DNA from: a virus
Length of the DNA: 64,000 nt
Virus genome (UHGV): UHGV-1550212
Direction: 5' to 3' (one strand)
The notes under the pieces are model-generated. The model worked only from the letters and a program-made list of their open reading frames with translations. It was not told where the DNA came from and did no database searches. This document shows, piece after piece, positions 9,294 to 63,333 of this stretch (within the stretch, counting starts at the first letter, position 1; each line of letters opens with the position of its first letter). A program made the translations under genes and the position numbers.

Positions 9294-9320
9294 ATTGTAC
9301 CACAAGTTGTCAAGTTTTGC
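9294..9320 (-). promoter_or_regulatory. Promoter-like motif (sense strand GCAAAA-N15-TACAAT variant)
   Basis: Plus strand reads attgtaccacaagttgtcaagttttgc; member of the recurrent intergenic motif family. Confidence 0.4.
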
Positions 9321-9363
9321 TAACTTTGACGACTTGTGGTACGTCTGTTTTGTACATATGCAG

Positions 9364-12441: not shown

Positions 12442-12470
12442 ATAGTACAACAAAAATCTCAAATTTGCAC
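12442..12470 (-). promoter_or_regulatory. Promoter-like motif (sense GTGCAAATTTGAGATTTTTGTTGTACTAT)
   Basis: Recurrent intergenic motif ~24 nt upstream of the start at 12417. Confidence 0.45.
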
Positions 12471-16825: not shown

Positions 16826-16856
16826 ATATGATACAACAAACGTGTCAATTTTGCAC
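16826..16856 (-). promoter_or_regulatory. Promoter-like motif (sense GTGCAAAATTGACACGTTTGTTGTATCATA)
   Basis: Recurrent motif ~25 nt upstream of the clamp-loader start. Confidence 0.45.
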
Positions 16857-21750: not shown

Positions 21751-21779
21751 TATGATACAACACTTGTGACATTTTTGCT
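21751..21779 (-). promoter_or_regulatory. Promoter-like motif upstream of the primase-helicase gene
   Basis: Plus strand tatgatacaacacttgtgacatttttgc; sense GCAAAAATGTCACAAGTGTTGTATCATA. Confidence 0.4.
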
Positions 21780-24089: not shown

Positions 24090-24347
24090 TTAATTGTTGA
24101 GATACTGCTGAAGCTCAACTTCTGTTGCAAGTCTACATTGCTTAATATTGAACACTGTCATAATATGACAACTCTTGCATTTATGCCAAATTTCAGCAAC
24201 AGCAGTTTGTGTGTTCTTTGGCAATGAGCGTCTGTACTTGACAATGTCTGTAGTGCCGCAGCATTTACATGTGCCAAGCACTACATACAATTTTGAGTTA
24301 GTCGCGCTCAATTGTGACATGTCTAACTTCTGCTTCTTCATAGCCAT
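24090..24347 (-). CDS. Small zinc-ribbon-like protein
   Basis: CKCCGTTD ... CKSCH Cys pairs; 85 aa; start may be one of three nearby Met. Confidence 0.4.
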   Translation of the reverse strand: MAMKKQKLDMSQLSATNSKLYVVLGTCKCCGTTDIVKYRRSLPKNTQTAVAEIWHKCKSCHIMTVFNIKQCRLATEVELQQYLNN

Positions 24348-25749: not shown

Positions 25750-25777
25750 ATTGTACAACGATGTTGTTAGATTTGCA
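25750..25777 (-). promoter_or_regulatory. Promoter-like motif (sense GATGCAAATCTAACAACATCGTTGTACAAT)
   Basis: Recurrent motif ~30 nt upstream of ATG 25719. Confidence 0.45.
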
Positions 25778-25951: not shown

Positions 25952-26920
25952 TTAATCAAGCCAATGCAACATATTCTCATCATCAAAACGAGATTCAAGC
26001 TCTGCTGTCGTAATGAATGCAAGTTTGTTCAGCATATACTGCTGCAATTCACGTTTGCGAATTGATTCAAATCTGACAAATGTTTCAGGCACTTCAAGTT
26101 CACCATCAGCATCATATGTTGCAACAGACGTGTCAACATTGATGTTATGAATCTTTTCACATGACACTCTGTACTTTGTCAAGTCAAAGCCTGGCATGCC
26201 ATCATTACGAGGCAGCAAACTCCACATAGCAAAGTTTTCTACAGCTTCAGCAACAAATGCAAGAGCTTCATGCATGTCAACACTATAGTCTTCTATAAGA
26301 TTTGCATACAATGTAGCTACAATGTTTTGGTGTGTTGCAAGGTCAAGCTTATTACTAATTGCATGCTCAAAAATGTCTTTGAAGTTCTCATACATAGTAA
26401 AGTTCTTCAAGACAAGTCGCTGTAATGCTGTGCGATCTTCAAGAGCTGCAAATGCTGCGTCATCATGCATTGCAGAAGCTGCTGCTTGCTGAGCATTCAG
26501 TACAACTGACACATCATGAATGACAAATTTTGAGTCAATCAATACTGACACTGCAATAAATGGTGCAACAGACTTTGAGTCTTTTTGAGCAAAGTCAATC
26601 TTAATGTGAAATGAATTGCCTTGTCGTGATTGCACTGAATGATAAATGTCGTAGTCGTTGACATACAGCTTAAAGTGCTGCTTGATTGCATCATTGACTG
26701 CATTGATGCCCGCATCATAAATGTTGCCAATCACTTCAAGTGCACGAGTGTTAAGCGTATGTGCAAGAAATGCTACGTTTTGATAGTTGACGAGTTTGTG
26801 AGACAAGTCAGTCGTGCTGTTAAGTTGTCTCATCAAATCATGCAGTGCATCGTATGACAATTTGATGTCATCTAATGTGTTGCACTCATGTATTGCGTTA
26901 ATTTGCTGTGCCAGAGTCAT
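25952..26920 (-). CDS. Hypothetical protein (322 aa)
   Basis: ORF; no motif recognised. Confidence 0.5.
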   Translation of the reverse strand: MTLAQQINAIHECNTLDDIKLSYDALHDLMRQLNSTTDLSHKLVNYQNVAFLAHTLNTRALEVIGNIYDAGINAVNDAIKQHFKLYVNDYDIYHSVQSRQGNSFHIKIDFAQKDSKSVAPFIAVSVLIDSKFVIHDVSVVLNAQQAAASAMHDDAAFAALEDRTALQRLVLKNFTMYENFKDIFEHAISNKLDLATHQNIVATLYANLIEDYSVDMHEALAFVAEAVENFAMWSLLPRNDGMPGFDLTKYRVSCEKIHNINVDTSVATYDADGELEVPETFVRFESIRKRELQQYMLNKLAFITTAELESRFDDENMLHWLD

Positions 26921-27164
26921 TTTGTGTATGTTCTTGATTTGCTTGTTCTGCTAAGTTGTTTATGAATGCTTTGAGCAATGTAATGATTGTTGTTAGCAAC
27001 TGAATTTGAAACAATACAATGCTAAACACGACAATTGCTACAACGCAAAATGAAATGAAGAGCATATTGATGTCAAATTTGTTTGCTATCAATGTTTGCA
27101 GCCAAGTTATGACTGCAAACATTGAAATCAGTATGAATGCTTTGTGCTGTGATAACGATTTCAT
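26898..27164 (-). CDS. Small two-helix membrane protein (holin-like topology)
   Basis: 88 aa, two hydrophobic helices and a polar C-terminus; not adjacent to a lysin, so function open. Confidence 0.35.
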   Translation of the reverse strand: MKSLSQHKAFILISMFAVITWLQTLIANKFDINMLFISFCVVAIVVFSIVLFQIQLLTTIITLLKAFINNLAEQANQEHTQNDSGTAN

Positions 27165-27880
27165 TTGAAATGTGTGGATGTTGGATTAGTGTCGGTCATT
27201 CTAACATGCCAATCATAAATGAACCATCTTGCGAGGTCATCATTTTTGATGTTATGAGTTTTGACATACTGTTCAGGACCTAATGCCTCACCAGTTTCAG
27301 GATTGACTGCGAAATGAGATTCATCTACATTAGTAGACTTGTTTTTGATGTTTGAGATTCGGAGCTTTGTATGCAGTTCAGTGCCATCAGATTGCAGTGT
27401 TTTGACATAGAATGCAGTTTTTGTCGTTGCTTCATTGTCAAGCCATACTCCAAACTTAACTCCGTGCGATTTCCAGTATGCATTGTCAGCATCCCTGATT
27501 GCTTTGAAGTTCGGGTCATCCAACCAAGGTTTGAAGACGTATACAGCATGTTGTTCTTTTCGAGTGATTTCGCCTTTGCCTTCACAAACTGTATGATACA
27601 GCCGCATTGCAGTTTCTTCATCAAAATAGTAAGTCAGATTGCCTGGCTTATCAAATGTGCCAAGCTGTTGACCATCGATTACAAGAATGAATGTGTACCG
27701 CGAATCCTTAAAGAATTCTACTTGTACAGGCTGTTTGTGCTGTTTGCTGTTAAGCAGTCTGTCAATTGTAATGACTGCCCAGTTGGTGCCTGTCTTTGTT
27801 TTGTTGCCGTGAAACAGTTCAGGATATGAAACTGTGTAAGGCAATGCTTTGTACTTCCAATGTTCATTAAAGCTTTTCAT
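27161..27880 (-). CDS. Hypothetical protein (239 aa)
   Basis: ORF preceded by three tandem promoter-like motifs. Confidence 0.5.
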   Translation of the reverse strand: MKSFNEHWKYKALPYTVSYPELFHGNKTKTGTNWAVITIDRLLNSKQHKQPVQVEFFKDSRYTFILVIDGQQLGTFDKPGNLTYYFDEETAMRLYHTVCEGKGEITRKEQHAVYVFKPWLDDPNFKAIRDADNAYWKSHGVKFGVWLDNEATTKTAFYVKTLQSDGTELHTKLRISNIKNKSTNVDESHFAVNPETGEALGPEQYVKTHNIKNDDLARWFIYDWHVRMTDTNPTSTHFK

Positions 27881-27963: not shown

Positions 27964-28110
27964 ATTGTACTACAAAAATCCCAAATTTGCACACTTTGAT
28001 AATCAAAAGTGCAAACAAAATTCAAAGTTATATTGTACATCACAAAGTGCAAATTTGCACTTTGTGATGTTAAAATGCCCCATTGTACAATATTTTGTGC
28101 TATTTTGCAC
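27964..28110 (-). promoter_or_regulatory. Three tandem promoter-like motifs, the middle one embedded in a perfect 26-bp palindrome (28041-28066)
   Basis: attgtactacaaaaatcccaaatttgcac (27964-27992), attgtacatcacaaagtgcaaatttgcac (28032-28060), attgtacaatattttgtgctattttgcac (28082-28110); palindrome cacaaagtgcaaatttgcactttgtg. Confidence 0.5.
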
Positions 28111-28215
28111 AAAGCAGCATGTTAAAATGTAACCATTTATAACGCTGCAAAATGTCTGCATAAAATAAGCAGCTTAGCAATCTAAGCTGCTGTCATTGTA
28201 TGCATGCAGTCACTG

Positions 28216-28701: not shown

Positions 28702-28735
28702 GCAAATATATTTTTGTTTGTATATGTACATAAAA

Positions 28736-28765
28736 GAGCAAGTTCTCAATGTGGAGAACTTGCTC
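28736..28765 (-). terminator. Hairpin (12-bp stem gagcaagttctc / gagaacttgctc, loop aatgtg)
   Basis: Perfect inverted repeat downstream of the tRNA/non-coding region on the minus strand. Confidence 0.4.
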
Positions 28766-29159
28766 AGCTGACCTGTTGCCAGGTGAAAGCGTGGTGCAGC
28801 ACCTTGTGCTGCAATGGCTATGCTGCCATCGCCATAACGGGCTGAGCATTGCCCAGCATCATTACACGACCAGCTGCATTAAGCGTACGCTTTGCTTTGT
28901 TGAAAAATTTGCCAGTTATCTGGTATCTGCACATCTATTCAAGCGACCTACTATGCAATCAAATGCCTGTCGAGCCCAATGTTTGAGCAGTTGTTTGTCA
29001 GATGCTCAGCTGACTGCAGTCTTTCTGAGTGTATCAAGTTCAGCGATTCTGCATCTTTGCTAAATGGCAATAGTTCAGGTGGACTCGCCGAGAATCGAAC
29101 TCGGGTCTTACATAGCGCATCCTTGACTTGGTCCTGTAAACAGGGTTGTCAACATGCAT
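28766..29159 (-). ncRNA. Candidate structured non-coding RNA region downstream of the tRNA cluster, including a tRNA-like 3' half at about 29075-29105
   Basis: About 390 nt with no credible ORF, more GC-rich than surroundings, internal repeats (gctcagctgac twice) and a T-arm/acceptor-like CCGAGTTCGATTCTCGGCGAGTCCACC for which I could not find a pairing 5' acceptor strand. Confidence 0.25.
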
Positions 29160-29230
29160 TGCAATACGACAGGACTCGAACCTGCGACCTCGGATTGGAC
29201 GTCCGCGCTCTTACCGCTGAGCTACGTATT
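29160..29230 (-). tRNA. tRNA-Gly(UCC)-like, atypical (G at position 33, G1:G72 mismatch); possibly a pseudo-tRNA
   Basis: Minus strand GAATACG-TA-GCTCAGCGGTAAGAGC-GCGGA-CGTCCAA-TCCGA-GGTC-GCAGG-TTCGAGT-CCTGT-CGTATTG; canonical D and T arms, anticodon TCC. Confidence 0.5.
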
Positions 29231-29321
29231 CTTATCAATTGACTGCACTGCAATGCAATCAATCGTGCCAATGATATTTGACGCATAATTGCAGTTATGC
29301 GTAACAATTCAAATGTCATTG

Positions 29322-29394
29322 AGCCAACTGCAGGAGTCGAACCTGTAACCTGCTGATTACAAATCAGCTGCTCTGCCAATTGAGCTAAGTTGGC
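29322..29394 (-). tRNA. tRNA-Thr(UGU)
   Basis: GCCAACT-TA-GCTC-AATTGGCA-GAGC-A-GCTGA-TTTGTAA-TCAGC-AGGTT-ACAGG-TTCGACT-CCTGC-AGTTGGC-T; acceptor stem 7/7 paired. Confidence 0.8.
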
Positions 29395-29476
29395 ATAAAG
29401 TCGTTGGGCCATTGCAACCCAAACCTATCATCTTTGTCTAACCAAAGATGCAAGTGTTCTCTTACACCACGACTTG

Positions 29477-29548
29477 TAGCCGAACTTGGAGTCGAACCAA
29501 GCTTTCGAGAATGAAAATCTCGCGTCCTAACCGATAGACGAAACGGCC
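29477..29548 (-). tRNA. tRNA-Glu(UUC)
   Basis: Anticodon arm CGAGA-TTTTCAT-TCTCG, T arm CTTGG-TTCGACT-CCAAG, D loop with GG; acceptor stem has two mismatches at its base, so ends are +/- 2 nt. Confidence 0.65.
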
Positions 29549-29731
29549 AAGAGCAGTTCAAGTCTGCAGCATTGAACTGCGGAAACAATGCCTGTACGGG
29601 CAGCAAATTGTGCAGATACAGCGACATTGCAAAATCACACCGAACCAAGTTTGTGGCTCTTCTGTCTCATAAAAACAAGTAATCATTACACTTGGCACCA
29701 ATGATTCTGATGTAAAAATCGGTGTGTTATG

Positions 29732-29816
29732 CGGAGAGTAAGGGATTCGAACCCCTGGTACGTTGCCGTACAGTGGTTTTCAAGACCACCGCCATCGACC
29801 GCTCGGCCAACTCTCC
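29732..29816 (-). tRNA. tRNA-Ser(UGA), long variable arm
   Basis: GGAGAGT ... GTGGT-CTTGAAA-ACCAC, variable arm TGTACGGCAACGTACCA, T arm AGGGG-TTCGAAT-CCCTT, acceptor 3' ACTCTCC perfectly paired. Confidence 0.85.
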
Positions 29817-30010
29817 ATAAAACATTGCATAAGCATTCTTATCTCTTGATGAGACCAAGTAGCTAATTTGGCAAGTTTGTTATATCTATCGTGACTGTTG
29901 CAGTTTGTTTGTCACTCAATACACAAAACTTTCGAACATTCATTGACAGCACTGCAATATCGCTTTTTAAGCTTAGCCATCAATGTATTTATGCAATGTA
30001 TAACAATTCG

Positions 30011-30092
30011 TAGCCAAACCGGGACTTGAACCCAGACTCCTAATGGAACAACATTTTGAGTGTTGCGTGTCTACCAATTCCACCATTTGGCC
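30011..30092 (-). tRNA. tRNA-Leu(CAA), long variable arm
   Basis: Anticodon arm CAACA-CTCAAAA-TGTTG, variable arm about 13 nt, T arm CTGGG-TTCAAGT-CCCGG, acceptor GGCCAAA/TTTGGCT. Confidence 0.8.
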
Positions 30093-30182
30093 ATTTACAA
30101 ATGCAATCTATTTCACAACTGTTTGCATTTGCATTGTTTAACACTAAAAATATGATTCATCTAATCAAAAACCAGAGAATTG

Positions 30183-30256
30183 TAGGGTAGACAGGACTCA
30201 AACCTGCGACCACGTGGTCCCAAACCACGCATTCTAATCAACTGAACTACTACCCT
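30183..30256 (-). tRNA. tRNA-Pro(UGG)
   Basis: AGGGTAG-TA-GTTC-AGTTGATTA-GAAT-G-CGTGG-TTTGGGA-CCACG-TGGTC-GCAGG-TTTGAGT-CCTGT-CTACCCT-A. Confidence 0.85.
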
Positions 30257-30262
30257 AAGTAG

Positions 30263-30334
30263 TTGAACCGTCTGGACTCGAACCAGAAATGGCTGAACCA
30301 AAATCAGCTGTGTTACCGATTACACCACGATTCA
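30263..30334 (-). tRNA. tRNA-Gln(UUG)
   Basis: TGAATCG-TG-GTGT-AATCGGTA-ACAC-A-GCTGA-TTTTGGT-TCAGC-CATT-TCTGG-TTCGAGT-CCAGA-CGGTTCA-A. Confidence 0.85.
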
Positions 30335-30398: not shown

Positions 30399-30427
30399 AT
30401 AATACTACAAACATTTATGATTTGCAC
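30399..30427 (-). promoter_or_regulatory. Promoter-like motif upstream of the tRNA operon (sense TGCAAATCATAAATGTTTGTAGTATTAT)
   Basis: Same TGCAAA-N16-TAnnAT architecture as the protein-gene motifs, about 65 nt upstream of the tRNA-Gln 5' end. Confidence 0.45.
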
Positions 30428-32200: not shown

Positions 32201-32208
32201 GGTTGCTT

Positions 32209-32221
32209 GGGGGTGGGGGGG
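32209..32221. repeat. Homopolymeric G tract GGGGGTGGGGGGG in the 24-nt spacer between two minus-strand genes
   Basis: Plus strand ttgggggtgggggggtca; striking in AT-rich DNA. Confidence 0.8.
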
Positions 32222-32734: not shown

Positions 32735-33029
32735 AATCTGTCAATATAAAGCATCGTACAAGTCTTGAAACGAGTCGTCTATGACCCGTCTCAACTCGTA
32801 TCATATGCTTGGTGAATAGTGGACCTGCTGCTGTAACACAATGTCTGTCAAGGGCATTTAGTACTTTGTTCATTGCAATCAATGGGTGCAAATGACTATT
32901 CGGCCAGCATTCTTCTGCAATGTATGTCAAAATGCCATCGCCATATGACACGACTGCGCATTTGTCTGCAACAAGATGCTTCTTAGCAATCTCTGCAACT
33001 TTCTGTGTAGAACAACACATCACAATCAA
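32709..33029 (-). CDS. Hypothetical protein (106 aa)
   Basis: ORF; 4-nt overlap with the topoisomerase gene end. Confidence 0.4.
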   Translation of the reverse strand: MIVMCCSTQKVAEIAKKHLVADKCAVVSYGDGILTYIAEECWPNSHLHPLIAMNKVLNALDRHCVTAAGPLFTKHMIRVETGHRRLVSRLVRCFILTDYENLHQIQ

Positions 33030-35020
33030 TCATCTGCAGCATCACCATCGAAGCCCATTAGTACTTTGCGTACATGCGCATTGCCGCCGAGCCATGCATT
33101 GATTGCATCCCATGAGTCTTCTTTAGCGACTACTTGTTCGAGTACTGGCGCAGACATAATGTCTTCAAACTCTGTAGAAGTCAATGATGCAAGACCCTTC
33201 TTATGATTGACTTCCCAGTCTTTGCTGCCATTGAATTTGTCTGCGACTTTATTGTAATCATCATAGAAGTAGAACTTTCGCTCTTCACCAGTTTTGCGAT
33301 TGTTGCAAATGATGATTGGCGTGACTACGTTGTACACAAGGCCCATGTCAAATAACTCAGGCCAGAACTTATAGAAGAATAACTGCAGCAATGATGAAAT
33401 GCTGTAGCCATCAACATCAGCATCAGTCAAAATGCAAATCTTGCCATAGCGTAATTTGCGTGGGTCTGCTTTTTCATTGAATCGCAAGCCAAGCGACTGC
33501 ATCAAACCAGCAATTTCAGGCTTTTCTATGAGTTTCTTTGGATTGTCATAGTAGCAATTGCCGATTGACTTACCGCGAATGCAGTAGAAGCCTTGAGTAA
33601 GTGCATTTCGATTGACTCGAATACCTTGTGATGCAGAATCACCTTCTACAATGAATAGCATGCATTCATTACGATTTGTCTTTTGTGCAGCATCTACAAG
33701 TTTATTGACGTGAAACTGCTTTGTCTTGACTTCAAGTTTCTTATTGAGCTCCTTGGCTTCTTTGGCTTTCTCTTTCTCTTCTTCAATCTGTTTCTTGATT
33801 TTGCAGTCCATCAAGATGCGGTCAAGAATTTCAGTTTTTGTCAAGTACTTCTTGAGCTTATCTGAAATGAGAATTGGAAAGCCAAACTTTTGTGTTTTTG
33901 TAGCCAATTTATCTTTGACCTGCGCATCGAATTCAGGATTGGGGATTTTCCACATCGACAAAATTGACATGTGCTTAAATACGTCTTTCTTTGCAGGTTC
34001 AAACCCATATTTGTTTTTGATGTGACTAATCAAAAAGTCTGCGCATACATTCGCGATGAAGTCCATATGCGTGCCATAGTCACATCGAATTGAATTGACT
34101 ATTGCAAAGCTTTCAAAGAAGCCTGCTCTACTTGGACCAATCTCAAAACTGTAGTTTTCGTTTTCATCACCACGAAATTCTTGAGTATGTTCCCATAAGT
34201 CTTTGTATTCCCAGAAGTGTTTGAACTTGAACTCATAGTTTTCACCAGTGACTTCATTGTGCCATTCAACTACAAGTGGATTGTTTACATCGCAGCCCAT
34301 AACTGCGACTTCAATTGCTCGTGATAGCCACTTGTCTACAGTGTCATCTGGAATGTGGTCAAGCGGAGCTGCGTTAATCCACTCCCATCTGCCAAGGTCA
34401 AGATGAGCTTCGATGTATGTAAAATGTTCAGACTTACGGCATTTGCTGACTTTTGCCTCATCATGTCGCCCCATGTTGTCATACCAGCAAATTTCAAGTT
34501 TTTTGCCATCTTTTGCTGTAATGACTTTGAATGACTTAGACATCACATTGACAAGTGACGCGCCAAGACCATTTGTGCCAGACAATGCGCCGCGGTCAGC
34601 AACAAAATTTGAACCAGACCTCAATGAGCCAAATACCATCTGCGGTATGTACTCATTGTACTCTGGATGCATCACTACAGGAATGCCACCGTTGTCCCAT
34701 ACTGCAAGCTTGCCTGTTTTTGGGTTGACTGTGACAGATATGCGATTGACTACTTCTTGTGCATGACTTTGAATGTTACGTTGACGCTCATCAAAACTAT
34801 TATTGATGCACTCATTAAACATTGTATTCAAGCCAATTGACTGATATGTGTCATAGACACGTCGAATCGGTCTTTCAGCATCTTCATATGGACGATACAA
34901 CTCACATTCTTGTTCCGCAAGAAATTCAAGCGAACCTATGTACATGCCGGGCTTCAGTAGACAATGCTCGCGCGATGAAAGTTTTTTGAATTTTTCTGTC
35001 AGAGTGTTTATGTCAGACAT
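33026..35020 (-). CDS. DNA topoisomerase II, GyrB-like ATPase + TOPRIM subunit (T4 gp39/gp60-like, fused)
   Basis: ATPase motifs GLNTMFNECINNSFDE, VWDNGGIPV, GTNGLGASLVNVMS; TOPRIM motifs LFIVEGDSA and KICILTDADVDGYSI. Start at MSDINTL (ATG 35020). Confidence 0.85.
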   Translation of the reverse strand: MSDINTLTEKFKKLSSREHCLLKPGMYIGSLEFLAEQECELYRPYEDAERPIRRVYDTYQSIGLNTMFNECINNSFDERQRNIQSHAQEVVNRISVTVNPKTGKLAVWDNGGIPVVMHPEYNEYIPQMVFGSLRSGSNFVADRGALSGTNGLGASLVNVMSKSFKVITAKDGKKLEICWYDNMGRHDEAKVSKCRKSEHFTYIEAHLDLGRWEWINAAPLDHIPDDTVDKWLSRAIEVAVMGCDVNNPLVVEWHNEVTGENYEFKFKHFWEYKDLWEHTQEFRGDENENYSFEIGPSRAGFFESFAIVNSIRCDYGTHMDFIANVCADFLISHIKNKYGFEPAKKDVFKHMSILSMWKIPNPEFDAQVKDKLATKTQKFGFPILISDKLKKYLTKTEILDRILMDCKIKKQIEEEKEKAKEAKELNKKLEVKTKQFHVNKLVDAAQKTNRNECMLFIVEGDSASQGIRVNRNALTQGFYCIRGKSIGNCYYDNPKKLIEKPEIAGLMQSLGLRFNEKADPRKLRYGKICILTDADVDGYSISSLLQLFFYKFWPELFDMGLVYNVVTPIIICNNRKTGEERKFYFYDDYNKVADKFNGSKDWEVNHKKGLASLTSTEFEDIMSAPVLEQVVAKEDSWDAINAWLGGNAHVRKVLMGFDGDAADD

Positions 35021-35050: not shown

Positions 35051-35079
35051 ATTGTACAACAAGAATGCAAAACTTGCAC
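35051..35079 (-). promoter_or_regulatory. Promoter-like motif (sense AGTGCAAGTTTTGCATTCTTGTTGTACAAT)
   Basis: About 30 nt upstream of ATG 35020. Confidence 0.45.
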
Positions 35080-37218: not shown

Positions 37219-37473
37219 CTAAAATGTTAACTGTAATGACTTGATATTGCTGCATTCGATTTTTAACATGGCCAACTTGTCATGTGCAGCCATTGCGTCA
37301 TATTTGATGTTTGCAATTTCGAGCTTTTGTGCAATTTTGTATGCAGTGGCAGCATCAGTAGATATGCAGATGCAATTGCCAATGACTATATTTGCTGCAT
37401 CTGTTATGTTAACTTTGCATGCATTATCATTGTTATCAATGACTTCGATGCATTTGATTGAGTTAAAGTCCAT
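37219..37473 (-). CDS. Hypothetical small protein (84 aa)
   Basis: ORF with promoter-like motif 37526-37554 upstream. Confidence 0.4.
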   Translation of the reverse strand: MDFNSIKCIEVIDNNDNACKVNITDAANIVIGNCICISTDAATAYKIAQKLEIANIKYDAMAAHDKLAMLKIECSNIKSLQLTF

Positions 37474-37525
37474 ATTGCAGAGGTTTAGTATATTTGACTC
37501 TATATTATTTATAGATTAATACTAC

Positions 37526-37554
37526 ACACTTGCAGATTTTGCACTTAATTGATA
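37526..37554 (-). promoter_or_regulatory. Promoter-like motif (sense GTGCAAAATCTGCAAGTGTGTAGTATTAAT)
   Basis: Recurrent motif in the divergent intergenic region. Confidence 0.4.
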
Positions 37555-37644
37555 AATAATTTGTAAACATTTTCACAAACTTTTAACAGCTCTTTCGCTT
37601 ATGAAAACTACTCAACTCTGGTTTGAACGCCAGCAGTCAATCGC

Positions 37645-37651
37645 GGGGGGG
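37645..37651. repeat. Homopolymeric G7 tract 27 nt upstream of the plus-strand gene at 37678
   Basis: caatcgcgggggggctcttc in an otherwise AT-rich intergenic region. Confidence 0.8.
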
Positions 37652-37677: not shown

Positions 37678-38370
37678 GTGCGGTTTACGCTCGTAGATGA
37701 TATGAGCATACATTGTGCATATATGCCAAACATATATGTGTTTGCTGATGGCAATGAGTATGCAATATCTCCAATAGGTTCACAATCACTTGATTATGAC
37801 GGCTCATGTATTGTACGTATTACCAAGTCAGACTGGATTGAAATGTTTGGCGCTGGTGTTACACAAGGCAGACTTAAATTTGGCTATGGTACAAATGAGC
37901 TTGAATTTTGTGAATTGATAAGCACTGCAACTGCTGAAGTCAAATTCGTTATTGGTTATGAGCAAAACCAGTCTGTCACTGCAACATTTAGTGATTTGCT
38001 GCATAATCCACTTGTCGCAACAAACAACAATTCTGCACAAGCAACAATTACATATACATTTAGTCATGCGACATTTAGAACAGCAGCATTTACGATTATC
38101 GGTAATGTGACATTTATTCCAGGCGGTGATGTAAGTAAAACAGCTATAATTCTTGCGCCTAATTATAGTATAACAATTAAGTACACTACGTCATCAACGC
38201 CAAAACTATTTGAGCATTCAATGACATTTGAGCGTAACAATGAAATGCTTGAGTATGTTGGCACTGAAGTAGACAGACATGCGTATTGTCAAATGAGACG
38301 TAGAACTACGGGCTCAACTGTATATTGTCATGTGTATATTGATGATAGCATGCTTAATATGATGGATTGA
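37678..38370 (+). CDS. Hypothetical protein (230 aa), one of only two plus-strand genes
   Basis: ORF begins with GTG at 37678 (ATG alternative at 37702); followed by a strong hairpin. Confidence 0.5.
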   Translation: MRFTLVDDMSIHCAYMPNIYVFADGNEYAISPIGSQSLDYDGSCIVRITKSDWIEMFGAGVTQGRLKFGYGTNELEFCELISTATAEVKFVIGYEQNQSVTATFSDLLHNPLVATNNNSAQATITYTFSHATFRTAAFTIIGNVTFIPGGDVSKTAIILAPNYSITIKYTTSSTPKLFEHSMTFERNNEMLEYVGTEVDRHAYCQMRRRTTGSTVYCHVYIDDSMLNMMD

Positions 38371-38446: not shown

Positions 38447-41400
38447 TTAGAACAGAGCAATGATGTTGTCGACAAACATAAAGCATGCATGCAGCAATTC
38501 AGCTGTCGGCATCATCTCATATGCTTTGCCATCATACATGAATCGCACAGTGACAATGGGTGACACTTCATCTTTGAATGCAAGCACAGGAACATCTACA
38601 CCTGCAGTCAATTGCACTTCAACATCCTTGTCAGCTGCTACATCTTTAGCAATCACTGTAATATCTCGACAACGACCAGCAGCTACTGCATATCTAACAT
38701 TTGTCAATGTAGCAGACATGTCAGCAAGAGCTTGCATGATTTGTTGCTGAGTAAATTGCTCAACTGACTTCTTTGCAGCCTTGACAGCTTCGATATCTTG
38801 TGTGTTTGCAAGAATCAATGCTACCACTGCAGGGTCAGAAGTAGTCCACCAACGACCATCAATTGCAAGCCACAGTCGATTGCCATTGACGTCAATTGCA
38901 TATGCATATTGAGTGTTTGGCGCCAATGCGACTTTTCGAGTGTTCTTTAAGAACTCTGCCGCATCAGGAGCCGCAACAATGTTCTTGACAAATGACGGCA
39001 GCATTTCAGCTTCAAATGTTTGTGTAGCTTCAAAGACACCGCCATGTGCATCGTCATCAATTCTGCCTGCAAAGCGTTTGCAGATTTGAATGATTGTAGC
39101 CATGCCTACCGTTGAAACGACTTGACGTTTCATTGCAGGCATTTGCAGAGGCATTGTATCTTGCGCAATGTACAATGATGTCGTATTAATAGTGTCAAGT
39201 ACTCGTGCAATGTCTGCAGTATCAACAATTACAAACCAGTCGCCGTCATGGCAGACAATAAGTTGCTTGCTGTCATTTGCATATGTCAGCAATACTGCAA
39301 TGTCATTTTTGATTGAGATTGCAGGAATCCATGCTTGTTGCAGAGGTAAGTCAAGATTTGGTGTGCCGCATGGATAAAGCGCAGATGGCTGCATAATTGA
39401 GCGGCAATCAAAACCTATTGAACTTACAAGCTGCAGAACTTCGCCACGAATGCAAGCATTACTTTGATTCTGTGTCATGTCATATGCAAGCCAACTGCAA
39501 ATTGCTTTGATTGATGACACTGGAAATGCTACGCCAATTGTGCTGTATGCAATCTTGCCGTCTGCTGACAATGACTCATCAACTGCAATGCCAGCATCAT
39601 TGAACAATGACATATCAATTGAACAATGGAATTCGCCACCAGGCATTGGACCTGCAGCAATGCCATAGCCAGGACCAAGTGACAGCCATTCTTTCATTGC
39701 ATCTGAATTGTATGACGAGAACTTGTACAACACGTATGACTTATGCGGGTCACTAACTGACTTGCGAATCTCCATCTTGGCGCCTGCTTTCTTTGCAATT
39801 GCTTTAATGTTATCGGCGTGCTTCTTTGCCTCAGACTTATCAAATTTGCCTTCATCAAGTTGAGCAATCTTGCCAAGCGCATAAGCAGTCCATGCAATTG
39901 ACAATTGATTCAGCGCGCCAACTTCTGACCACGACTTTTCTGCAAACCATGAGCCAAGACCAGATTTGTCAAGAGTTTCTTTGCGTTCAGCTTTTGTTGC
40001 AGCATCCCACCACTTGCCTGTTGCAGGCAACACAACGTCTTTGATTTGCTCCTTGCGAAGCTCATTGACACCGATTTTGCCCTCATGAACATGCGCATTT
40101 GCATGATATGCTCTAAGAGCAGCCAATGCAGCATCATATGAGTCATAGTCTTGCGGCCAGAATTCCCCATTCTTGCCAATGATGCCCCATACGCCCTTTG
40201 ACTTTTCTTGTATGACAGAATCTTTGTCACCGGCAGCTTCATTGACAAATGCTGTGTTAAGATACGCAATGACATGCTGAAGCTCTTTGTCATCTGCAGA
40301 CTCATTGACATTCTTAGCGTAATCACCAAGAATTGATTCAACTTTGCCACGCAAATTGCTTGGCATATCATCAAGGTCAAGATTGCCATACTTCGTGACT
40401 TCTGGTTGAGACAATCCAAGCAATTTCAACACCTTATCACGGTACTTGTTTGCGAGCTTCTTCCAAATCCAGCGGAATGTTACAGCGCCAATCAGAAATT
40501 TGATGAGGCCCTCATCAAGTACATGCTGTTCACGCAAATATGACGTAATGCATGAACGTTGACCATCAGTCAAGTCAACCCACATTTTATCAAGCAATAT
40601 TGAATCTGGGTTGCTTGCAATGCCAGCACCACTGCGGTTGTACACATTCATTCTGTCAATTGCTGGTGTTGCGTCATTGTCCCACCAAGCTTGTGCATAT
40701 GAACATCCAGCAGGATTTGAGATTGCCTCATTAATGTACATGACATTGAAGATTTCGCAAAGACGCTTGCGGCATTCATGTGACATAACTTGCCATTGTT
40801 CGGCAATTTTGTCTTCTGACCACTGCAGCAACATGTCTGCAAATTCTTTACCTGCGCATTGCTCAACTACACCATGTTTTGAACGCCAATAATTGTCAGG
40901 CTCAATCTGCGCAATTGCATGAACAAATGAAGTCAGATTGTATGACGCAGATTCGCAAATGCAATGCTGTTCAATGTAGCTACGAACAGCAAGTGCAGTG
41001 TCTTCCGGCAAGTTGCTATATGGTGACTCATAGATGTTTGCTTGCTGATTGAGCATATGTGGAGCAACTTCTGCAATGATTTGCTTGCGAACATTCAATG
41101 GCCATGCATTCCATGAAGATTCTACAGATTCATCAAGATGCATGCCAATTGCATCCATAACTGCATCAGCATCTTTGCCCAACAGTTCGTCAAACAATTT
41201 GTCTACTACTGCAGTGTCATATCGCAAATTTGGCTGAGCTTTTGCAAGAGCATTCATCATTGCTTTGCGTTCTTGTTTTGACGCATTGTTCCATGTGCCA
41301 GCATACAATTCTGCTGTCGCGCTTTCACAGACAATATCTGCAGCAGCATATGCTTGCTTCATAATGTCCATGAAGATTGACTTCATTTTTGGATGCATCA

Positions 41401-41653
41401 CATGATACTTTTCATTGTAGATGTCAAGTACGCCATAAACATCTTTCAATGGTCGAATGCTTTCTGATGAGCCGAATGATGGCTTCAAAATTGAATTGCA
41501 TACACGTTCAACGGTGCCACGCATAAACTTGACATCACTTCGCTTGTCACTGATAGACATAAATGCATCAATGACAGACTTGATGGTGTCATCTGCAGCT
41601 TCATTAACAAAGCCTACTGGTCGACCGCCAAACTTGTTTGTTTGTGTTGTCAT
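38447..41653 (-). CDS. Large hypothetical protein (1068 aa)
   Basis: Uninterrupted ORF; no catalytic motif recognised by eye. Confidence 0.6.
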   Translation of the reverse strand: MTTQTNKFGGRPVGFVNEAADDTIKSVIDAFMSISDKRSDVKFMRGTVERVCNSILKPSFGSSESIRPLKDVYGVLDIYNEKYHVMHPKMKSIFMDIMKQAYAAADIVCESATAELYAGTWNNASKQERKAMMNALAKAQPNLRYDTAVVDKLFDELLGKDADAVMDAIGMHLDESVESSWNAWPLNVRKQIIAEVAPHMLNQQANIYESPYSNLPEDTALAVRSYIEQHCICESASYNLTSFVHAIAQIEPDNYWRSKHGVVEQCAGKEFADMLLQWSEDKIAEQWQVMSHECRKRLCEIFNVMYINEAISNPAGCSYAQAWWDNDATPAIDRMNVYNRSGAGIASNPDSILLDKMWVDLTDGQRSCITSYLREQHVLDEGLIKFLIGAVTFRWIWKKLANKYRDKVLKLLGLSQPEVTKYGNLDLDDMPSNLRGKVESILGDYAKNVNESADDKELQHVIAYLNTAFVNEAAGDKDSVIQEKSKGVWGIIGKNGEFWPQDYDSYDAALAALRAYHANAHVHEGKIGVNELRKEQIKDVVLPATGKWWDAATKAERKETLDKSGLGSWFAEKSWSEVGALNQLSIAWTAYALGKIAQLDEGKFDKSEAKKHADNIKAIAKKAGAKMEIRKSVSDPHKSYVLYKFSSYNSDAMKEWLSLGPGYGIAAGPMPGGEFHCSIDMSLFNDAGIAVDESLSADGKIAYSTIGVAFPVSSIKAICSWLAYDMTQNQSNACIRGEVLQLVSSIGFDCRSIMQPSALYPCGTPNLDLPLQQAWIPAISIKNDIAVLLTYANDSKQLIVCHDGDWFVIVDTADIARVLDTINTTSLYIAQDTMPLQMPAMKRQVVSTVGMATIIQICKRFAGRIDDDAHGGVFEATQTFEAEMLPSFVKNIVAAPDAAEFLKNTRKVALAPNTQYAYAIDVNGNRLWLAIDGRWWTTSDPAVVALILANTQDIEAVKAAKKSVEQFTQQQIMQALADMSATLTNVRYAVAAGRCRDITVIAKDVAADKDVEVQLTAGVDVPVLAFKDEVSPIVTVRFMYDGKAYEMMPTAELLHACFMFVDNIIALF

Positions 41654-41712
41654 ATATCAACTATTTTGATTGTCAATCAATTGATTTGTTTGTTATATGT
41701 ATGCAACAATGC

Positions 41713-41766: not shown

Positions 41767-44700
41767 TCAATTACATGCTGAATGTCCGCAGTTGGTGCAT
41801 CGAACACAGCCATCAAACTTGACCATGTCACCGCCGCATTCAGGACACTTTGCATACATCTTTGAGCCATCTTGAATATGCAGTTTCAATGCGCGCCCAA
41901 TTGCTTTGCAGAATGTTCCGACAGATGCAAAGCTTTTTGCAGTTTGGTCGACAATTTCGCCAAGGTCAATGCCATTGCGAAGCATCGTTGAGTACAGTCG
42001 AGTAATTGTTTGCTGCTCGTCTGAACCAAGACGTTCTGAGATATTATCATAGTGCTGCAAGAATGACAAATTATCACCAAGCTTGTAGTGCTTCTTATCA
42101 GTCTTTGTGATTGTCGTTTGTTCAATGCCTTGCAACTTGTCGAATTCATCTTTGTCAAGTTCAAATGCAAAGATTTCATAAGGTCGACCGTCATCACAGC
42201 CTACAAGAATACACCACTTGCGCTTATACACTGACACGCAATACACTGCAGCAGGCAATACTGGTTTTCGTTTTGAGCGATGACCAGATTGCAAGATGTG
42301 CGACTTGTCTTTTGACTGCTTGTCATCTTTTACGAGAACACCTGCACGTGAGCCATCTCGATAAATTGTGCAGCCTTTGCAGCCAGATTTCCATGCAGTC
42401 AGATAAATTTCACGAACAAGCTCTTTTGTTGCAGAGTTTGGAATGTTGACCGTTACAGAAATTGACGAGTCAATGTATTTTTGCAATGCACCTTGCAATT
42501 TCACCTTGCCAATCCAGTCAACATCTTCAGTAGTTGCCTTGTAGTATGGTGATTGAATAAGCAATTCATCAATGACTGCTTGCGGAGCATTTGACAACCA
42601 AGCTTTGATGCGAGACATTTCTGCTTCTGACCATTCAATGCCAGTATCTTTGACAAGAGTAAATTTGCCATCGCCAAGCTGCACTCGTTTACAAATCCAC
42701 TGCATCAACGGATAATGAACTACAGCGTATTCAATGAACTTGTCACCAGTAGTCTCATCAATGAAGTTGATGTCGGCCTCATTATCAACTGCAGTTGGCT
42801 TACGACGACGTTTATGTAGTGGCATAAATACGGGCTCAATACCAGACGTTGTCTGAGTCATCAAAGCTGTAGTGCCTGTTGGTGCAATTGTGGTCGTGTT
42901 AATGTTTCGACGGCCAAATTGCTGATAAGTTTTGATGTGCTCATCATCAATCAGTTCAGATAGCATACGCTGGATGAACTTTGATTGCACATCTGTGTCA
43001 TAGTCAAATATTGCAAATGAGCCACGAATCTTTGCCAAGTCAATTGACGCTTCATAAGTCGCCTTTACAAGCCATTGTTGCATAGTGACTGCGAAGTCAA
43101 TTGACTCCTGCGAGCCATAACGCAAGCCAAGCATCGCCATTGCATCGCCAAGCGCAAGGAAGCCCATGCCATATCGACGAGTGTTTGTCAGTTTATCATA
43201 AACTTTGTGCCACAAGTCAAGTTCAGTCTTTTTGATGTCAAAGTCTTCTTTATCTGACCGAACCTTTGCAATGATTCGTTGCACTGCTTCAATTTCAAGC
43301 TGCACAAGGTCATCCATGATGACTGCACAGTCATATGTATCTTTGTAGAATGTCTCAAAGTCAAATGATGCATCAGCAGTCCAAGGATTAAGCACATATG
43401 CAGTCAAATTGCGATGCGACAAAATGCAGCTTGCATATGCAGCGAGAGGCTGTTCACCGCAATTTAGTGTATTGACTACTTGCTTGTCATTGACAGCAAT
43501 AAAGAAATTGTGGAAGTCTTCTACTGTGCCATTGTACACATCTGCTTTGTTCATGTGACGTGTTGCAACGACTTTGACAATTGCATCACCAGTAGTGTCA
43601 ATGTCTGCATATTTGCTGCAGTCACCTAACGCTGCGCAAGCATCACAGCAATATGCTTGTTCACGATTGTCATAAGAAACTTCGAATTCTTTACCACAGC
43701 ACTCGCATTGTTTGATAACTGTGTTTCGTTCTGTTTTTACAAGCTCGTCAGTCTTCAATGCAATTGATAGCTTATCTGCGCTTGGCATATCAATTGCCCA
43801 CAATGAGTCATTTGTTGCAAGGTCAATTGCATTCTTGAAATCGCCATTAGCAAGCCTGAACTCATGATTTGCTGTGCAATTGATGACATGGCCGTCATCA
43901 AGCACAATTTGAATGATTTGCGCATTATGTGCAGTCAATCTGGGTCGACGCATTGTGCGCACAACGAGCTTGCCATTAGAGTCAAGACAATATACTGGAA
44001 TGTCTTCACCACTATCAGCAAGCTCTTTGAATGTCTTCAAACCTGAGCCATCAGCAACAAGTACTTTTGTGTCACCTGTGAAGCATGGATTTGTTGAGCG
44101 CTCTTCATACATTTTGCCATATGCTTTCGAGTTCGACTCTTCCATGATACGGTCCCAGAAGAACACGCCGGGTTCTGCAGATGCCCATACGTTATCAACA
44201 ATTTTGTCAAACAATGCTTTTGCATCTGATGTCTTATGCAGCTCTTGGCCATTAGAGCCACGCCAAACATGCTCAAACTGTTGTTCTGCAAGCACTGCAC
44301 GCATAAATGCATCAGTAAGCTTGATTGAAATGTTTGCGCCTGTGATTTTCGTCAAGTCCTTTTTTGCATCAATGAACTTATCTGCGTCAGGATGCTCAAT
44401 TGACAATGACAACATCAATGCGCCACGCCTGCCATTTTGTGCAACTTCTTTTGTTGATGTTGAAAAACGTTCCATAAATGACACTACACCAGAAGTTGTA
44501 ATAGCACTGTTATGCACTTCTACGTCTTCTGGACGAATGTGCGACAAATCATGACCAACGCCACCACGACGCTTCATCAACTGAACTTGCTCTTCATCTG
44601 TTTTGAAGATGCCGCCATATGAATCTGCGTCATTGCCAATTACATAGCAATTTGACATTGACGTGTAACCGCCAAGACCAATACCAGCCATTGGAGAACC

Positions 44701-45029: not shown

Positions 45030-45057
45030 ATTGTACAACAATGGGCAAAATTTTGCA
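45030..45057 (-). promoter_or_regulatory. Promoter-like motif (sense TGATGCAAAATTTTGCCCATTGTTGTACAAT)
   Basis: About 40 nt upstream of the reductase ATG; its TGCAAA element lies inside the left arm of the hairpin at 45055-45108. Confidence 0.45.
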
Positions 45058-45752: not shown

Positions 45753-45797
45753 TGTAGTAGAGGTTAAAATATATTAATATATAATAATTATACTACA

Positions 45798-45825
45798 AAG
45801 TTGTCAGATTTGCACCAGAATGTAT
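45798..45825 (-). promoter_or_regulatory. Promoter-like motif (sense GGTGCAAATCTGACAACTTTGTAGTATAA)
   Basis: Recurrent motif upstream of the start at 45752. Confidence 0.45.
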
Positions 45826-45941
45826 AACAAGTTTGCATAAAAGTTTTACATAAAATGCAAACAAAACAAGCAGACTGCAATTGCAGCCTGCTTGCGCCAA
45901 AACAGAAAAAGATGATAACTTACTAACCCAAAAACCTAACT

Positions 45942-50136: not shown

Positions 50137-50192
50137 ATTGTACAACATGCATTGCAAATTTGCAATGATACAACATGCATTGCTATTTTGCA
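50137..50192 (-). promoter_or_regulatory. Two tandem promoter-like motifs; the first contains the 18-bp palindrome cattgcaaatttgcaatg
   Basis: attgtacaacatgcattgcaaatttgca + atgatacaacatgcattgctattttgca, 26 nt upstream of ATG 50111. Confidence 0.5.
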
Positions 50193-52595: not shown

Positions 52596-52624
52596 ATAAT
52601 ACTACGACAATGCAAATTTTGCAC
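52596..52624 (-). promoter_or_regulatory. Promoter-like motif (sense GTGCAAAATTTGCATTGTCGTAGTATTATA)
   Basis: About 38 nt upstream of the start at 52558. Confidence 0.45.
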
Positions 52625-54816: not shown

Positions 54817-54845
54817 ATTGTACCACGTATGCATCAACTTTGCAC
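54817..54845 (-). promoter_or_regulatory. Promoter-like motif (sense GTGCAAAGTTGATGCATACGTGGTACAATT)
   Basis: 24 nt upstream of ATG 54793. Confidence 0.45.
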
Positions 54846-54851
54846 ACAAAA

Positions 54852-57366: not shown

Positions 57367-57478
57367 TATTGTACAACATGCATTGCATATTTGCAATGAT
57401 ACAACATGCAAAATGCACTTGCACTTTGATGCAAAGTACTGCGTACACAACATGCATCGCGTATTTGCATTTTGACGC
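57367..57478 (-). promoter_or_regulatory. Array of three tandem promoter-like units
   Basis: attgtacaacatgcattgcatatttgca / atgatacaacatgcaaaatgcacttgca / tactgcgtacacaacatgcatcgcgtatttgca; closely related copies at 50137-50192 and 58517-58590. Confidence 0.5.
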
Positions 57479-57482: not shown

Positions 57483-58565
57483 TCATTGTTGTTTATGCCA
57501 GCCATATGATGCCTGACCAGCATCATACACTTCTACGAAGCCATGGTCGTACATAAAATCTTCATTACGAGTGCCCTTGCCCCCATTAGTGCCAAGAATA
57601 CGGTCTGCGCCATGCATAAGCAGCATATTATTTGTGACATGTTGCTTTGTCAGCATATTGAACCAGTGTTTGCTATATGACAAGCCAAGACCATCAAAGC
57701 CCAGCTTTGTGTACACACCACCGTCAAACTTGCTTAAATCACAATATGATAACACAGATTCAGGGTCATATGTCTTGATAAAGTGCTTAAAGATTCGTTC
57801 AGCACCACCAACAACTTTGGTTGCTGCACAAAGACGTAGCAATTCATATTGATAGCGCTTATTGTATCGTGGACGACCAAATGTCATAAGTTGATGAATG
57901 ACATAACCACCAAGCAACTCAAGTGGATGACCTTCAATCAACGCAAGATTGATAAAATTGCCTGAGCACTTGCCTTGCAAATGATGTTCAATCAAAAATT
58001 GATTTGCAGTATACTTGTCAATTTCAACAACTTTAAGCTTGCGAGCATATACAATCTTTGATTTGTCTACGATTTGATGCTTGATGTGATTGATAACTTT
58101 CTTGGCGTCATCCCAGTCCCACACATGAATGCAATGAAAGCCTGCTGATTTGGCGATGTCTGTTTTCTTTGCATGAATATCACAAGGCAAATGCGAATCT
58201 TTTGCATCATGCATAAACAGATGTTCAAATGAATGTGTGCTGTTATGTGAAAATGCAGGATTGATGTTAATGACAATATTGTCATGTCGAAAATCGAAGA
58301 CTTCATCGCCAATGACAAAGTTGCGCTCAAAATTTATACCGACATGTTTGAGTAACACTTGATGCCACACATCTTTATAGGCTGATTCAAGCTTGCTTAG
58401 CTCATCACAGTTTGCAATGTTTTTGTAACGTTGAATAGCAGCATCAAAGTCAAGATTGACTTCAGCGTAGTCTGCATTTTTATCGTAGTGAAATTTTGAG
58501 CTCATGTGTATAATTTTGTATGAGATTATTGTACAACATGCAAATGCATGTTGCATTTGATGCAA
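57483..58565 (-). CDS. Homing-endonuclease-like protein, paralog 3 of 5 (nuclease-like domain N-terminal, different downstream module)
   Basis: DNIVININPAFSHN ... GFHCIHVWDWDD near the N-terminus; C-terminal GFVEVYDAG shared with the other paralogs; middle region with ANQFLIEHHLQG. Confidence 0.55.
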   Translation of the reverse strand: MHQMQHAFACCTIISYKIIHMSSKFHYDKNADYAEVNLDFDAAIQRYKNIANCDELSKLESAYKDVWHQVLLKHVGINFERNFVIGDEVFDFRHDNIVININPAFSHNSTHSFEHLFMHDAKDSHLPCDIHAKKTDIAKSAGFHCIHVWDWDDAKKVINHIKHQIVDKSKIVYARKLKVVEIDKYTANQFLIEHHLQGKCSGNFINLALIEGHPLELLGGYVIHQLMTFGRPRYNKRYQYELLRLCAATKVVGGAERIFKHFIKTYDPESVLSYCDLSKFDGGVYTKLGFDGLGLSYSKHWFNMLTKQHVTNNMLLMHGADRILGTNGGKGTRNEDFMYDHGFVEVYDAGQASYGWHKQQ

Positions 58566-59694: not shown

Positions 59695-59723
59695 ATTGTA
59701 CAACATACAAATGCGTTTTGCAT
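59695..59723 (-). promoter_or_regulatory. Promoter-like motif (sense TGCAAAACGCATTTGTATGTTGTACAATT)
   Basis: 21 nt upstream of ATG 59674. Confidence 0.45.
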
Positions 59724-63217: not shown

Positions 63218-63333
63218 AATTATCTGTGTTTAATTTATGTATACTATTGTATTGTAGCATTGACTACTTTGCGCATAACAAAAAAGAAGCCAAGTCATTT
63301 GACTTGGCTTTGAAATGTGTACTTGCAGTTGTA

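Follow-up and report, generated by a model that had tools for sequence, protein, structure and literature searches.

The 64,000 nucleotides of the virus genome UHGV-1550212 analysed here (the window) carry a repeated two-box motif, exemplified by a minus-strand copy at 35051..35079 that lies 30 nt upstream of the gene for the ATPase/Toprim subunit of a type II topoisomerase (33026-35020). As a whole, these copies are best explained as strong promoters built on the sigma-70 plan and specific to one phage lineage, which would be read by a sigma factor of canonical specificity, and we regard this explanation as probable. That the pattern is real and marks a predicted promoter class appears very probable. 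The flagged copy scores 34.9 bits with our weight matrix and has the form GTGCAAG-N11-TGTTGTACAAT, or, read along the minus strand from 35079 to 35051, GTGCAAG-TTTTGCATTCT-TGTTG-TACAAT. The window encodes a gp23-type capsid, a T4-type large terminase, a gp44-like clamp loader and both topoisomerase II subunits, together with an NAD-dependent ligase, a ribonucleotide reductase with an intein, DHFR and many ORFans. The phage is a human-gut jumbo phage with a T4-like core, for which a near-identity DNA search against GenBank phages gave no match.

A promoter-like motif recurs on the coding strand

An initial annotation of this DNA had described a promoter-like motif with a fixed 16-nt spacer, also present ahead of the tRNA operon, and shuffles, a spacing scan and a weight matrix all confirmed it. 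Within the 64-kb window TGCAAA-N16-TAYWAT matches 13 times, always on the minus strand; dinucleotide-preserving shuffles predict 0.19 matches (shuffle maximum 2). The looser pair TGCAA..TANNAT yields 18 minus-strand matches at the 16-nt spacing, against 0-5 for each of the other spacings and for the plus strand. When spaced 5-mer pairs on the minus, coding strand were counted without a pattern given beforehand, TGCAA-N13-GTTGT and its shifted versions ranked first. The weight matrix, 29 nt wide and built from 18 sites, was then used to scan the window at a threshold of >=16 bits; it found 21 sites on the minus strand and none above 15 bits on the plus strand. All 21 lie in intergenic DNA and are co-oriented with the downstream gene or RNA gene. 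The ATG start codons of long open reading frames (ORFs) follow at 20-59 nt, farther for the upstream members of tandem arrays, and tRNA-Gln follows about 65 nt downstream of the site heading the seven-tRNA cluster. Some copies stand in tandem, and strong terminators are found immediately upstream of several.

Eighteen sites had been listed beforehand. Fourteen of these coordinates were exact or at most 2 nt off, three were displaced by 10-11 nt (37526, 45798 and 58517 become 37516, 45787 and 58528) and one, 63246, is a doubtful degenerate copy with CGCAAA, no TGTTG element and a score below 16 bits. The tandem copies at 28032, 28082, 50165 and 57396 were missing from that list. The TTG or TAG noticed ahead of the -10 hexamer is indeed there and belongs to a nearly invariant TGT(T/A)G, and the major capsid and terminase genes are, as proposed, without the motif; they probably use a different signal.

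Predicted layout of a sigma-70-family promoter

We pooled 41 unique sites from the window, a sister strain and a relative of ~70% identity, numbering positions so that the hexamer occupies -12 to -7. The pooled consensus is (G/T/A)TGCAAA - 11 nt - TGT(T/A)G - TA(C/T)(A/C)AT. Within the hexamer A-8 is present in 41/41 sites, A-11 in 40/41 and T-12 and T-7 in 38/41 each; just upstream, G-13 is present in 41/41 and T-15 and G-16 in 40/41 each. GCAA of the upstream box is invariant across the 41 sites and TGCAAA spans -34 to -29, giving a distance to the hexamer of 17 nt if the box is read as nTGCAA and of 16 nt if it is read as TGCAAA. Seven nucleotides past the hexamer, at the predicted +1, 32 of the 41 sites have an A, and initiation would occur at this conserved base. 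The spacer is otherwise free, with TGCA in 16/41 spacers (~14% expected) yielding optional TGCAAA..TTTGCA and ATGCAT palindromes.

By these features the class is predicted to have a sigma-70-family layout: a -35-like box, a 17-nt spacer, an extended -10 and a purine start. The canonical sigma-70 or sigma-A promoter is TTGACA-17-TATAAT, and its extended -10 is TGn at -15 to -13. The phage sites resemble it in the placing of the boxes at -35 and -10, the 17-nt spacer, the nearly invariant T-12, A-11 and T-7 and the purine at +1. They differ in having nTGCAA(A) with invariant GCAA as the -35 box, TGT(T/A)G at -17 to -13 as the -10 extension and TACAAT with invariant A-8 as the hexamer, and in that the probable host phylum lacks this promoter type. 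A scan with a generic sigma-70 consensus showed no overall enrichment and did not set these sites apart. The phage consensus itself would be new, within the known sigma-70-type promoters, and a literature search for it, and for any promoter described in PAU-like or Bacteroidota jumbo phages, returned nothing relevant. A sigma-54 reading, with TTGCA as the -12 box, was rejected because there is no conservation at -24.

Among viruses the motif clusters in one phage lineage

In IMG/VR, 84 stretches match TGCAAA-N12-GTWGTACAAT. The 175.6-kb contig IMGVR_UViG_3300045988_149023 has twelve of the matches, all on the same strand, and two contigs of sample 3300030471 have two each; all other contigs have single matches. 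Clustering of the motif in IMG/VR is limited to this phage lineage, for the first contig is the sister strain, 92-97% identical to the window, and the contigs of 3300030471 belong to the ~70% relative (~66-74% nucleotide identity, 74% capsid identity). The analysis took in the first 69.7 kb of the sister contig and its stretch between 76.2 and 155.5 kb. Wherever this sister DNA covers a window site, the site is retained. At least 13 more sites lie in sister-strain sequence beyond the window, up to ~140 kb and none in 145-155 kb; they precede gp32, a split family-B DNA polymerase, dCMP deaminase, dUTPase, MazG and other genes. The ~70% relative has a copy at 5/7 orthologous positions, of the form TTGCAAA-N11-TGTAGTACAAT or a weaker variant, and the intergenic sequence around these positions is not alignable. 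Three more distant relatives (L101, L102 and L104) contain no motif copy. The view of the motif as a lineage-specific, promoter-like class serving replication, nucleotide-metabolism and tRNA units holds; the class would head these units and those of several uncharacterised genes.

Tandem cassettes vary in copy number between the 92-97% identical strains: the sister strain has two copies (L074, 4753-4813) where the window has one at 25777 (25750-25777), and the window array at 27964-28109 likewise differs from L074 7068-7163. Some promoter cassettes also have common extended upstream flanks, GTACTTTGCATCAAA. The copy-number difference and the common flanks therefore suggest that promoter modules were duplicated or moved.

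The probable host and its promoters

The nearest capsid and terminase relatives (33-47% identity) come from Chryseobacterium phages MA9V-1/2, 'Sphingomonas' phage PAU and Tenacibaculum phages, and farther ones (26-31%) from a Flavobacterium phage and Prevotella Lak phages; the nearest relatives all infect Bacteroidota. Identical proteins are encoded on human-gut metagenome contigs (ENA scaffold ZEEV15-1_SAMEA3664939, runs ERR1137001 and ERR1137265). A Shine-Dalgarno-like 4-mer at -20 to -4 is present in 1/59 genes and the leaders are A-rich and G-depleted; A-rich, Shine-Dalgarno-poor leaders are the pattern reported for Bacteroidetes (PMC6847099). The sister contig also encodes a BACON-domain protein. 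Taken together, the relatives, the leaders without Shine-Dalgarno sequences, the BACON domain and the gut origin point to a member of the gut Bacteroidota as the probable host. DHFR relatives were searched for in bacterial genomes for the same purpose, with no match.

The Bacteroidota promoter consensus is -33 TTTG / -7 TAnnTTTG, in which T-8, T-7, T-6 and G-5 are nearly invariant (PMC6847099). The phage motif was ruled out as a primary-sigma promoter of this kind at both boxes. At the -7 box it departs from 3/6 nearly invariant positions (-8, T-6 and G-5): -8 is A in 41/41 sites, which leaves no TTTG in this position, and -6 and -5 are not T and G. At -33, TGCAAA occupies -34 to -29 and there is no conserved TTTG. 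Upstream of genes in the window or the sister contig TAnnTTTG showed no concentration. Because the -10 element of the phage motif is without the Bacteroidota TTTG, it is doubtful that the host sigma reads it.

MA9V-1 provides a comparison. Its whole genome (L001-L005) contains 18 copies of ATGTC-N12-TATAT, all on the coding strand, and most continue as TATATTTGTA, which is a perfect host-type (Bacteroidota) -7 box. This stereotyped TATATTTG promoter serves the same kinds of gene as the window motif, with copies preceding the MA9V-1 sigma factor, ligase, topoisomerase and clamp loader genes, among others. The TGCAAA motif of the window is absent from MA9V-1. The MA9V-1 promoters (ATGTC-N12-TATATTTGTA) are thus like the window motif in serving equivalent genes, in a related phage, whereas the window motif has no TTTG at -7 and has a true -35-type box at 17 nt.

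The same pattern in bacterial genomes

One genome per bacterial species was scanned with TGCAAA-N11-TGTWGTACAAT, giving at least 120 stretches. Among the matches listed, 94/120 have a T ahead of the box, which makes it TTGCAAA, and a Shine-Dalgarno-like 5-mer occurs within 120 nt downstream in 71/120; these genome matches commonly precede a Shine-Dalgarno sequence and ATG, and some precede tRNA genes. The 80 listed matches with titles comprise 55 from Clostridia (Lachnospiraceae, Oscillospiraceae and others) and three from Bacteroidota. Two of these three (L138 and L146), together with the untitled L210, have common flanks resembling homologous coding sequence. The Clostridia skew, the T before the box and the downstream Shine-Dalgarno sequences and tRNA genes suggest that in cells the pattern marks canonical sigma-A promoters essentially unused by Bacteroidota, the proportions among the matches listed being indicative only.

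Unrelated to the phage, a Caldilineaceae metagenome-assembled genome (OZ253474.1, Chloroflexota) holds at least nine copies of a ~100-nt repeat containing the search pattern, of the form ..CCCAGGAAC TGCAAAC.CCCCGAT..TGTAGTACAAT TGTGC.. (L113, L118, L129, L158, L180, L193, L202, L215 and L217).

Candidate readers of the motif

On our reading the sites would be recognised by a bacterial multisubunit RNA polymerase carrying a sigma of canonical -35/-10 specificity. Since the sigma of a Bacteroidota host reads -33 TTTG / -7 TAnnTTTG, this specificity would most likely be supplied by a phage factor, either a sigma that escaped these searches by its divergence or its distant place in the genome, or a protein re-targeting the host sigma. 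The need for a phage-supplied specificity factor depends on the host assignment, and we propose it only tentatively. In its fullest form, which is possible but should be held more loosely still, the proposal is that a Bacteroidota jumbo phage runs most of its pre-late genes from canonical Firmicutes/E. coli-style promoters that a sigma-ABfr-type host holoenzyme should be unable to read, by way of an unrecognised factor. Such a factor might be a sigma without detectable similarity or embody a new re-targeting of the Bacteroidota sigma; as no host-type promoters are evident in >150 kb, it might even come with the virion.

Phage-encoded sigma systems offer a parallel. Promoters read by such factors, the SPO1 gp28 middle promoters for example, are likewise lineage-specific two-box promoters differing from those of the host, and the relatives of this phage do encode RpoD-like sigma factors: the MA9V-1 (MA9V1_023) and PAU (gp1) proteins have a genuine sigma region 2, with matches to SigA/RpoD structures up to E = 2e-17. 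Phages of the gp23-type jumbo group are reported to encode sigma factors but no RNA polymerase (PMC7824862). The difference is that no such gene was found in the available sequence of this lineage. Our searches combined Pfam and PHROGs scans of ~66 window and 76 sister-contig proteins with tblastn and an MA9V sigma-family profile, and covered the window, ~10 kb past its right edge and the two stretches of the sister contig given above.

Several results weigh against a phage factor or against the promoter reading behind it. No sigma70 region-2 homologue was detected in the scope just given (~150 kb of sister contig), and no RNA polymerase gene in the window or the same ~150 kb; because no sigma, MotA, AsiA or polymerase was found, the phage-factor step is without a candidate gene. 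Nor did we find a second promoter class that an unmodified Bacteroidota polymerase could use for the earliest genes. The host was itself deduced, and were its sigma A canonical, no phage factor would be needed. Promoter function is likewise deduced from sequence. Between the window and the sister strain, divergence is 13.3% in the 11-nt spacer, 6.8% in the two boxes and 7.8% in other intergenic DNA; the boxes fall barely below the intergenic value, and the signal of constraint is therefore weak at sister-strain distance. Finally, the taxonomic skew among the matches listed in cellular genomes could partly reflect database order.

A search of IMG/VR with the MA9V sigma profile found one unrelated contig, and large and small ORFans gave no match to solved structures. 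One lead came from the genes behind the triple promoter, 27161-27880 and its neighbour 25952-26920 (minus strand), whose orthologues in the relative (L078) matched the C-terminal extension of the MA9V sigma factor with profile E = 6e-8 and 0.002. The match to the orthologue of 27161-27880 thus falls on an extra domain of the MA9V protein and not on the sigma regions, and was rejected. The profile-profile match of 27161-27880 is weak (hhalign probability 36%) and its AlphaFold model, with a pLDDT of 38 and mostly beta strands, is unusable; the lead was dropped.

The sites could instead be ordinary early promoters read by the unmodified host holoenzyme, the host either being no Bacteroidota member with a sigma-ABfr-type factor, or having such a factor, or an alternative sigma, that tolerates the sequence. 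This would account for the failure to find a phage sigma, appropriator or polymerase in ~150 kb, and the motif is the sole abundant promoter-like one, while the onset of infection requires some working promoters. The pattern also appears to act as a normal cellular sigma-A promoter in many genomes, and the early promoters of T4 are likewise stereotyped, very strong host-type -35/extended -10 promoters (PMC2988021). Set against these points, the nearest relatives all infect Bacteroidota and a BACON domain is encoded on the sister contig, while the scarcity of Shine-Dalgarno-like leaders argues strongly against Firmicutes and most Proteobacteria. For a Bacteroidota host, A at -8 in every site and the unconserved T-6 and G-5 do not fit the -7 box, a box that the related MA9V-1 does carry. 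On balance we think reading by the unmodified holoenzyme rather unlikely.

Sigma appropriation of the T4 type, in which the host sigma reads the -10, a MotA-type activator binds TGCAAA and an AsiA-like protein remodels region 4, seems improbable. The initial annotation had drawn this analogy with T4 middle promoters, and there is a likeness: before replication and nucleotide-metabolism genes, the -10-like hexamer is accompanied by an upstream box that contains TGC and is specific to the phage, in a phage with a T4-like core (gp23, large terminase, gp44, gp32, topoisomerase II). The details do not bear the analogy out. The MotA box, (a/t)(a/t)(a/t)TGCTTtA, replaces the -35 at 12 +/- 1 bp from the -10 (PMC2988021). 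The phage box (G/T/A)TGCAAA has TGC alone in common with it and, lying at -34 to -29 and 16 nt from TA(C/T)AAT, does not take the position of a MotA box, which is centred at -30. Its geometry is exactly that of direct contact between sigma region 4 and a -35 box, and its -10 element mismatches the -7 box of the probable host. No match to MotA_activ, MotCF or AsiA (Pfam) was found among the ~140 proteins scanned from the window and the sister contig as read, such small proteins being ones that diverge fast. By analogy, the design looks closer to the early promoters of T4 than to its middle promoters, and also resembles phage-sigma promoters; early promoters of T4, T5 and T7 similarly occur as many stereotyped near-consensus copies per phage genome, sometimes in tandem.

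T4-type late promoters (gp55), with a single -10 element TATAAATA and no -35, were ruled out because the motif has two boxes. Words like the T4 late word CTATAAATA were not enriched in our counts (15 found, 10.8 expected).

It is very improbable that a phage-encoded RNA polymerase, in the form of a large ORFan (1068-1371 aa) or a virion-delivered enzyme, reads the motif: several very large proteins have no detectable homologues and no host-type early promoters were seen, but two boxes, a 17-nt spacer and a TAnAAT hexamer form a sigma-70-family signature, the catalytic DxDGD motif of RNA polymerases is absent from the large ORFs, and the reported absence of such polymerases from gp23-type jumbo phages speaks against one here. 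Equally little is to be said for a regulator-binding site or mobile repeat that is mainly not a promoter, since the TTGTACAA core (an 8-bp palindrome), the frequent TGCAAA..TTTGCA arrangement with its excess of TGCA in spacers, and the cassettes with common flanks and varying copy number are opposed by an absolute strand bias (21 vs 0), a fixed orientation and distance to start codons, conserved positions that correspond to a -10 hexamer (A-11, T-7) and an A at +1 rather than to a symmetric site, the optional nature of the spacer palindromes and the occurrence of the same pattern at promoters in cellular genomes.

Sites and neighbouring features along the window

The sites are given here from the right-hand end of the window; all are on the minus strand, with weight-matrix scores in bits. 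The degenerate copy at 63246..63273, CGCAAA-N16-TACAAT, follows terminator 63287-63310 and lies upstream of 61826-63217. The copy at 59695..59722 (30.5 bits) comes after terminator 59761-59791 and 20 nt upstream of 58613-59674, a DUF7487 paralogue; four such paralogues are encoded on the minus strand (61826-63217, 58613-59674, 3290-4633 and 16845-17876) and two more in the sister contig. A TGCAAC variant at 58528..58555 (28.5 bits) stands 22 nt upstream of 57483-58505, a homing/HNH endonuclease-like gene which, with this promoter of its own, is placed between the DUF7487 gene and a tandem-promoter region. The tandem pair there, 57368..57423, consists of 57396-57423 (22.9 bits) and 57368-57395 (34.8 bits), with a decayed third copy at ~57442-57469. 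Ahead of 55475-57232, this pair would drive a predicted ~90-nt transcript (57268-57361, minus strand) that ends at a terminator and has a conserved counterpart in the sister strain. It contains an ORF of 11 codons and two hairpins, of which the second is the terminator itself, 57279-57308 (fold z-score -4.8). The transcript could be a small RNA or an attenuating leader.

At 54817..54844 (26.2 bits) a copy lies 23 nt upstream of 54404-54793, and the T-tract of terminator 54851-54880 extends into its -35 box. The site at 52596..52623, a GTAG-TATTAT variant (27.5 bits), is 37 nt upstream of 51686-52558 and its position is kept in the ~70% relative (L047, 4669). The tandem pair 50137..50192 combines 50165-50192 (32.8 bits) with the best site of all, 50137-50164 (38.0 bits), upstream of the nucleotidyl-transferase-like gene 48456-50111; it too is kept in position in the relative (L047, 3174). 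Downstream of terminator 45866-45895, the copy at 45787..45814 (33.4 bits) is 34 nt upstream of 45297-45752. The copy at 45030..45057 (28.7 bits) precedes by 41 nt the gene for the ribonucleotide reductase large subunit (41767-44988, minus strand), whose intein gives an Intein_splicing match at residues 338-517. A weaker copy at 37516..37543 (19.6 bits), with TATTAA replacing the -10 hexamer, is 42 nt upstream of 37219-37473.

Beyond the flagged site, a copy at 30399..30426 (30.8 bits) lies ~65 nt upstream of the 7-tRNA cluster (29161-30334). ARAGORN called a permuted tmRNA at 28727-29169 (minus strand), overlapping tRNA-Gly; this call is probably false because Rfam finds seven tRNAs only. Triple tandem promoters at 28082-28109, 28032-28059 and 27964-27991 (26.7, 31.8 and 36.5 bits) follow terminator 28168-28191 and precede 27161-27880, with the position kept in the relative (L078, 3708). 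The protein of 27161-27880 has 50 member sequences drawn from public sequencing runs. The copy at 25750..25777 (28.9 bits) precedes by 30 nt the gene for the A subunit of topoisomerase II (24298-25719). A weak copy with AAGCAAA at 21752..21779 (16.9 bits), which has a TAATTTTG box directly downstream, is 41 nt upstream of the 1199-aa ORFan 18111-21710. The strong copy at 16828..16855 (36.0 bits) stands 59 nt upstream of the clamp-loader (gp44-like) gene 15794-16768, and that at 12442..12469 (37.0 bits), kept in position in the ~70% relative (L010, 3220), 24 nt upstream of 11974-12417, after which comes the NAD-dependent ligase gene 9836-11740. The last, a weak copy with TAGCAAA at 9294..9321 (19.8 bits), is 39 nt upstream of 8253-9254.

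A second recurrent element, (T/A)ATACATAT(A/T)(A)CAAAC, occurs on the minus strand at 24045-24051, 41694-41700, 48354-48360, 28721-28727 and 61785-61793, and also near 13430 of L103 and 9950 of L007. It is found directly after terminators and before genes without the TGCAAA motif (22427-24022, 38447-41653 and 47496-48104). The major capsid gene also has it upstream, and the 74%-identical relative retains ATACATATT at this place. Its word often lies 2-3 nt past the -10 hexamer of TGCAAA promoters. We consider the element a candidate late-promoter class.

Among other features, the start context AACCTCTAC(T/A)ACAATG is common to a subset of genes (starts 52558, 45752 and 37473; also in L036 and L103) and resembles the anti-Shine-Dalgarno sequence, not its complement. 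AACAAA-N10-TATGGCA is another recurrent word pair. The start at 32200 is closely preceded by a C-rich tract, CCCCCCCACCCCC, at ~32205-32217, and the divergent intergenic region ahead of the plus-strand gene 37702-38370 contains a G-run, GCGGGGGGGC, at ~37640-37650. Four ORFs are very large (1068-1371 aa): 18111-21710 and 38447-41653 (minus strand) in the window, L093 1935-6047 and L098 16244-20167. The two in the window had no match in Pfam, PHROGs or solved-structure sequences; those of L093 and L098 were scanned against Pfam only, in a pooled search.

Implications

The motif gives a transcription-unit map, with predicted promoters, terminators and starts, for a scarcely annotated lineage of uncultured gut jumbo phages. 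Its canonical -35/-10 class contrasts with the probable Bacteroidota host; a related Chryseobacterium phage has a host-type box ahead of the genes equivalent to those served here. Should the Bacteroidota assignment prove mistaken, the motif would be a useful clue to the true host. If it holds, the phage would have to introduce or generate a sigma specificity that is not native to its host, which would represent a new route of transcriptional take-over in Bacteroidota and could provide orthogonal promoter and factor parts for engineering Bacteroides.

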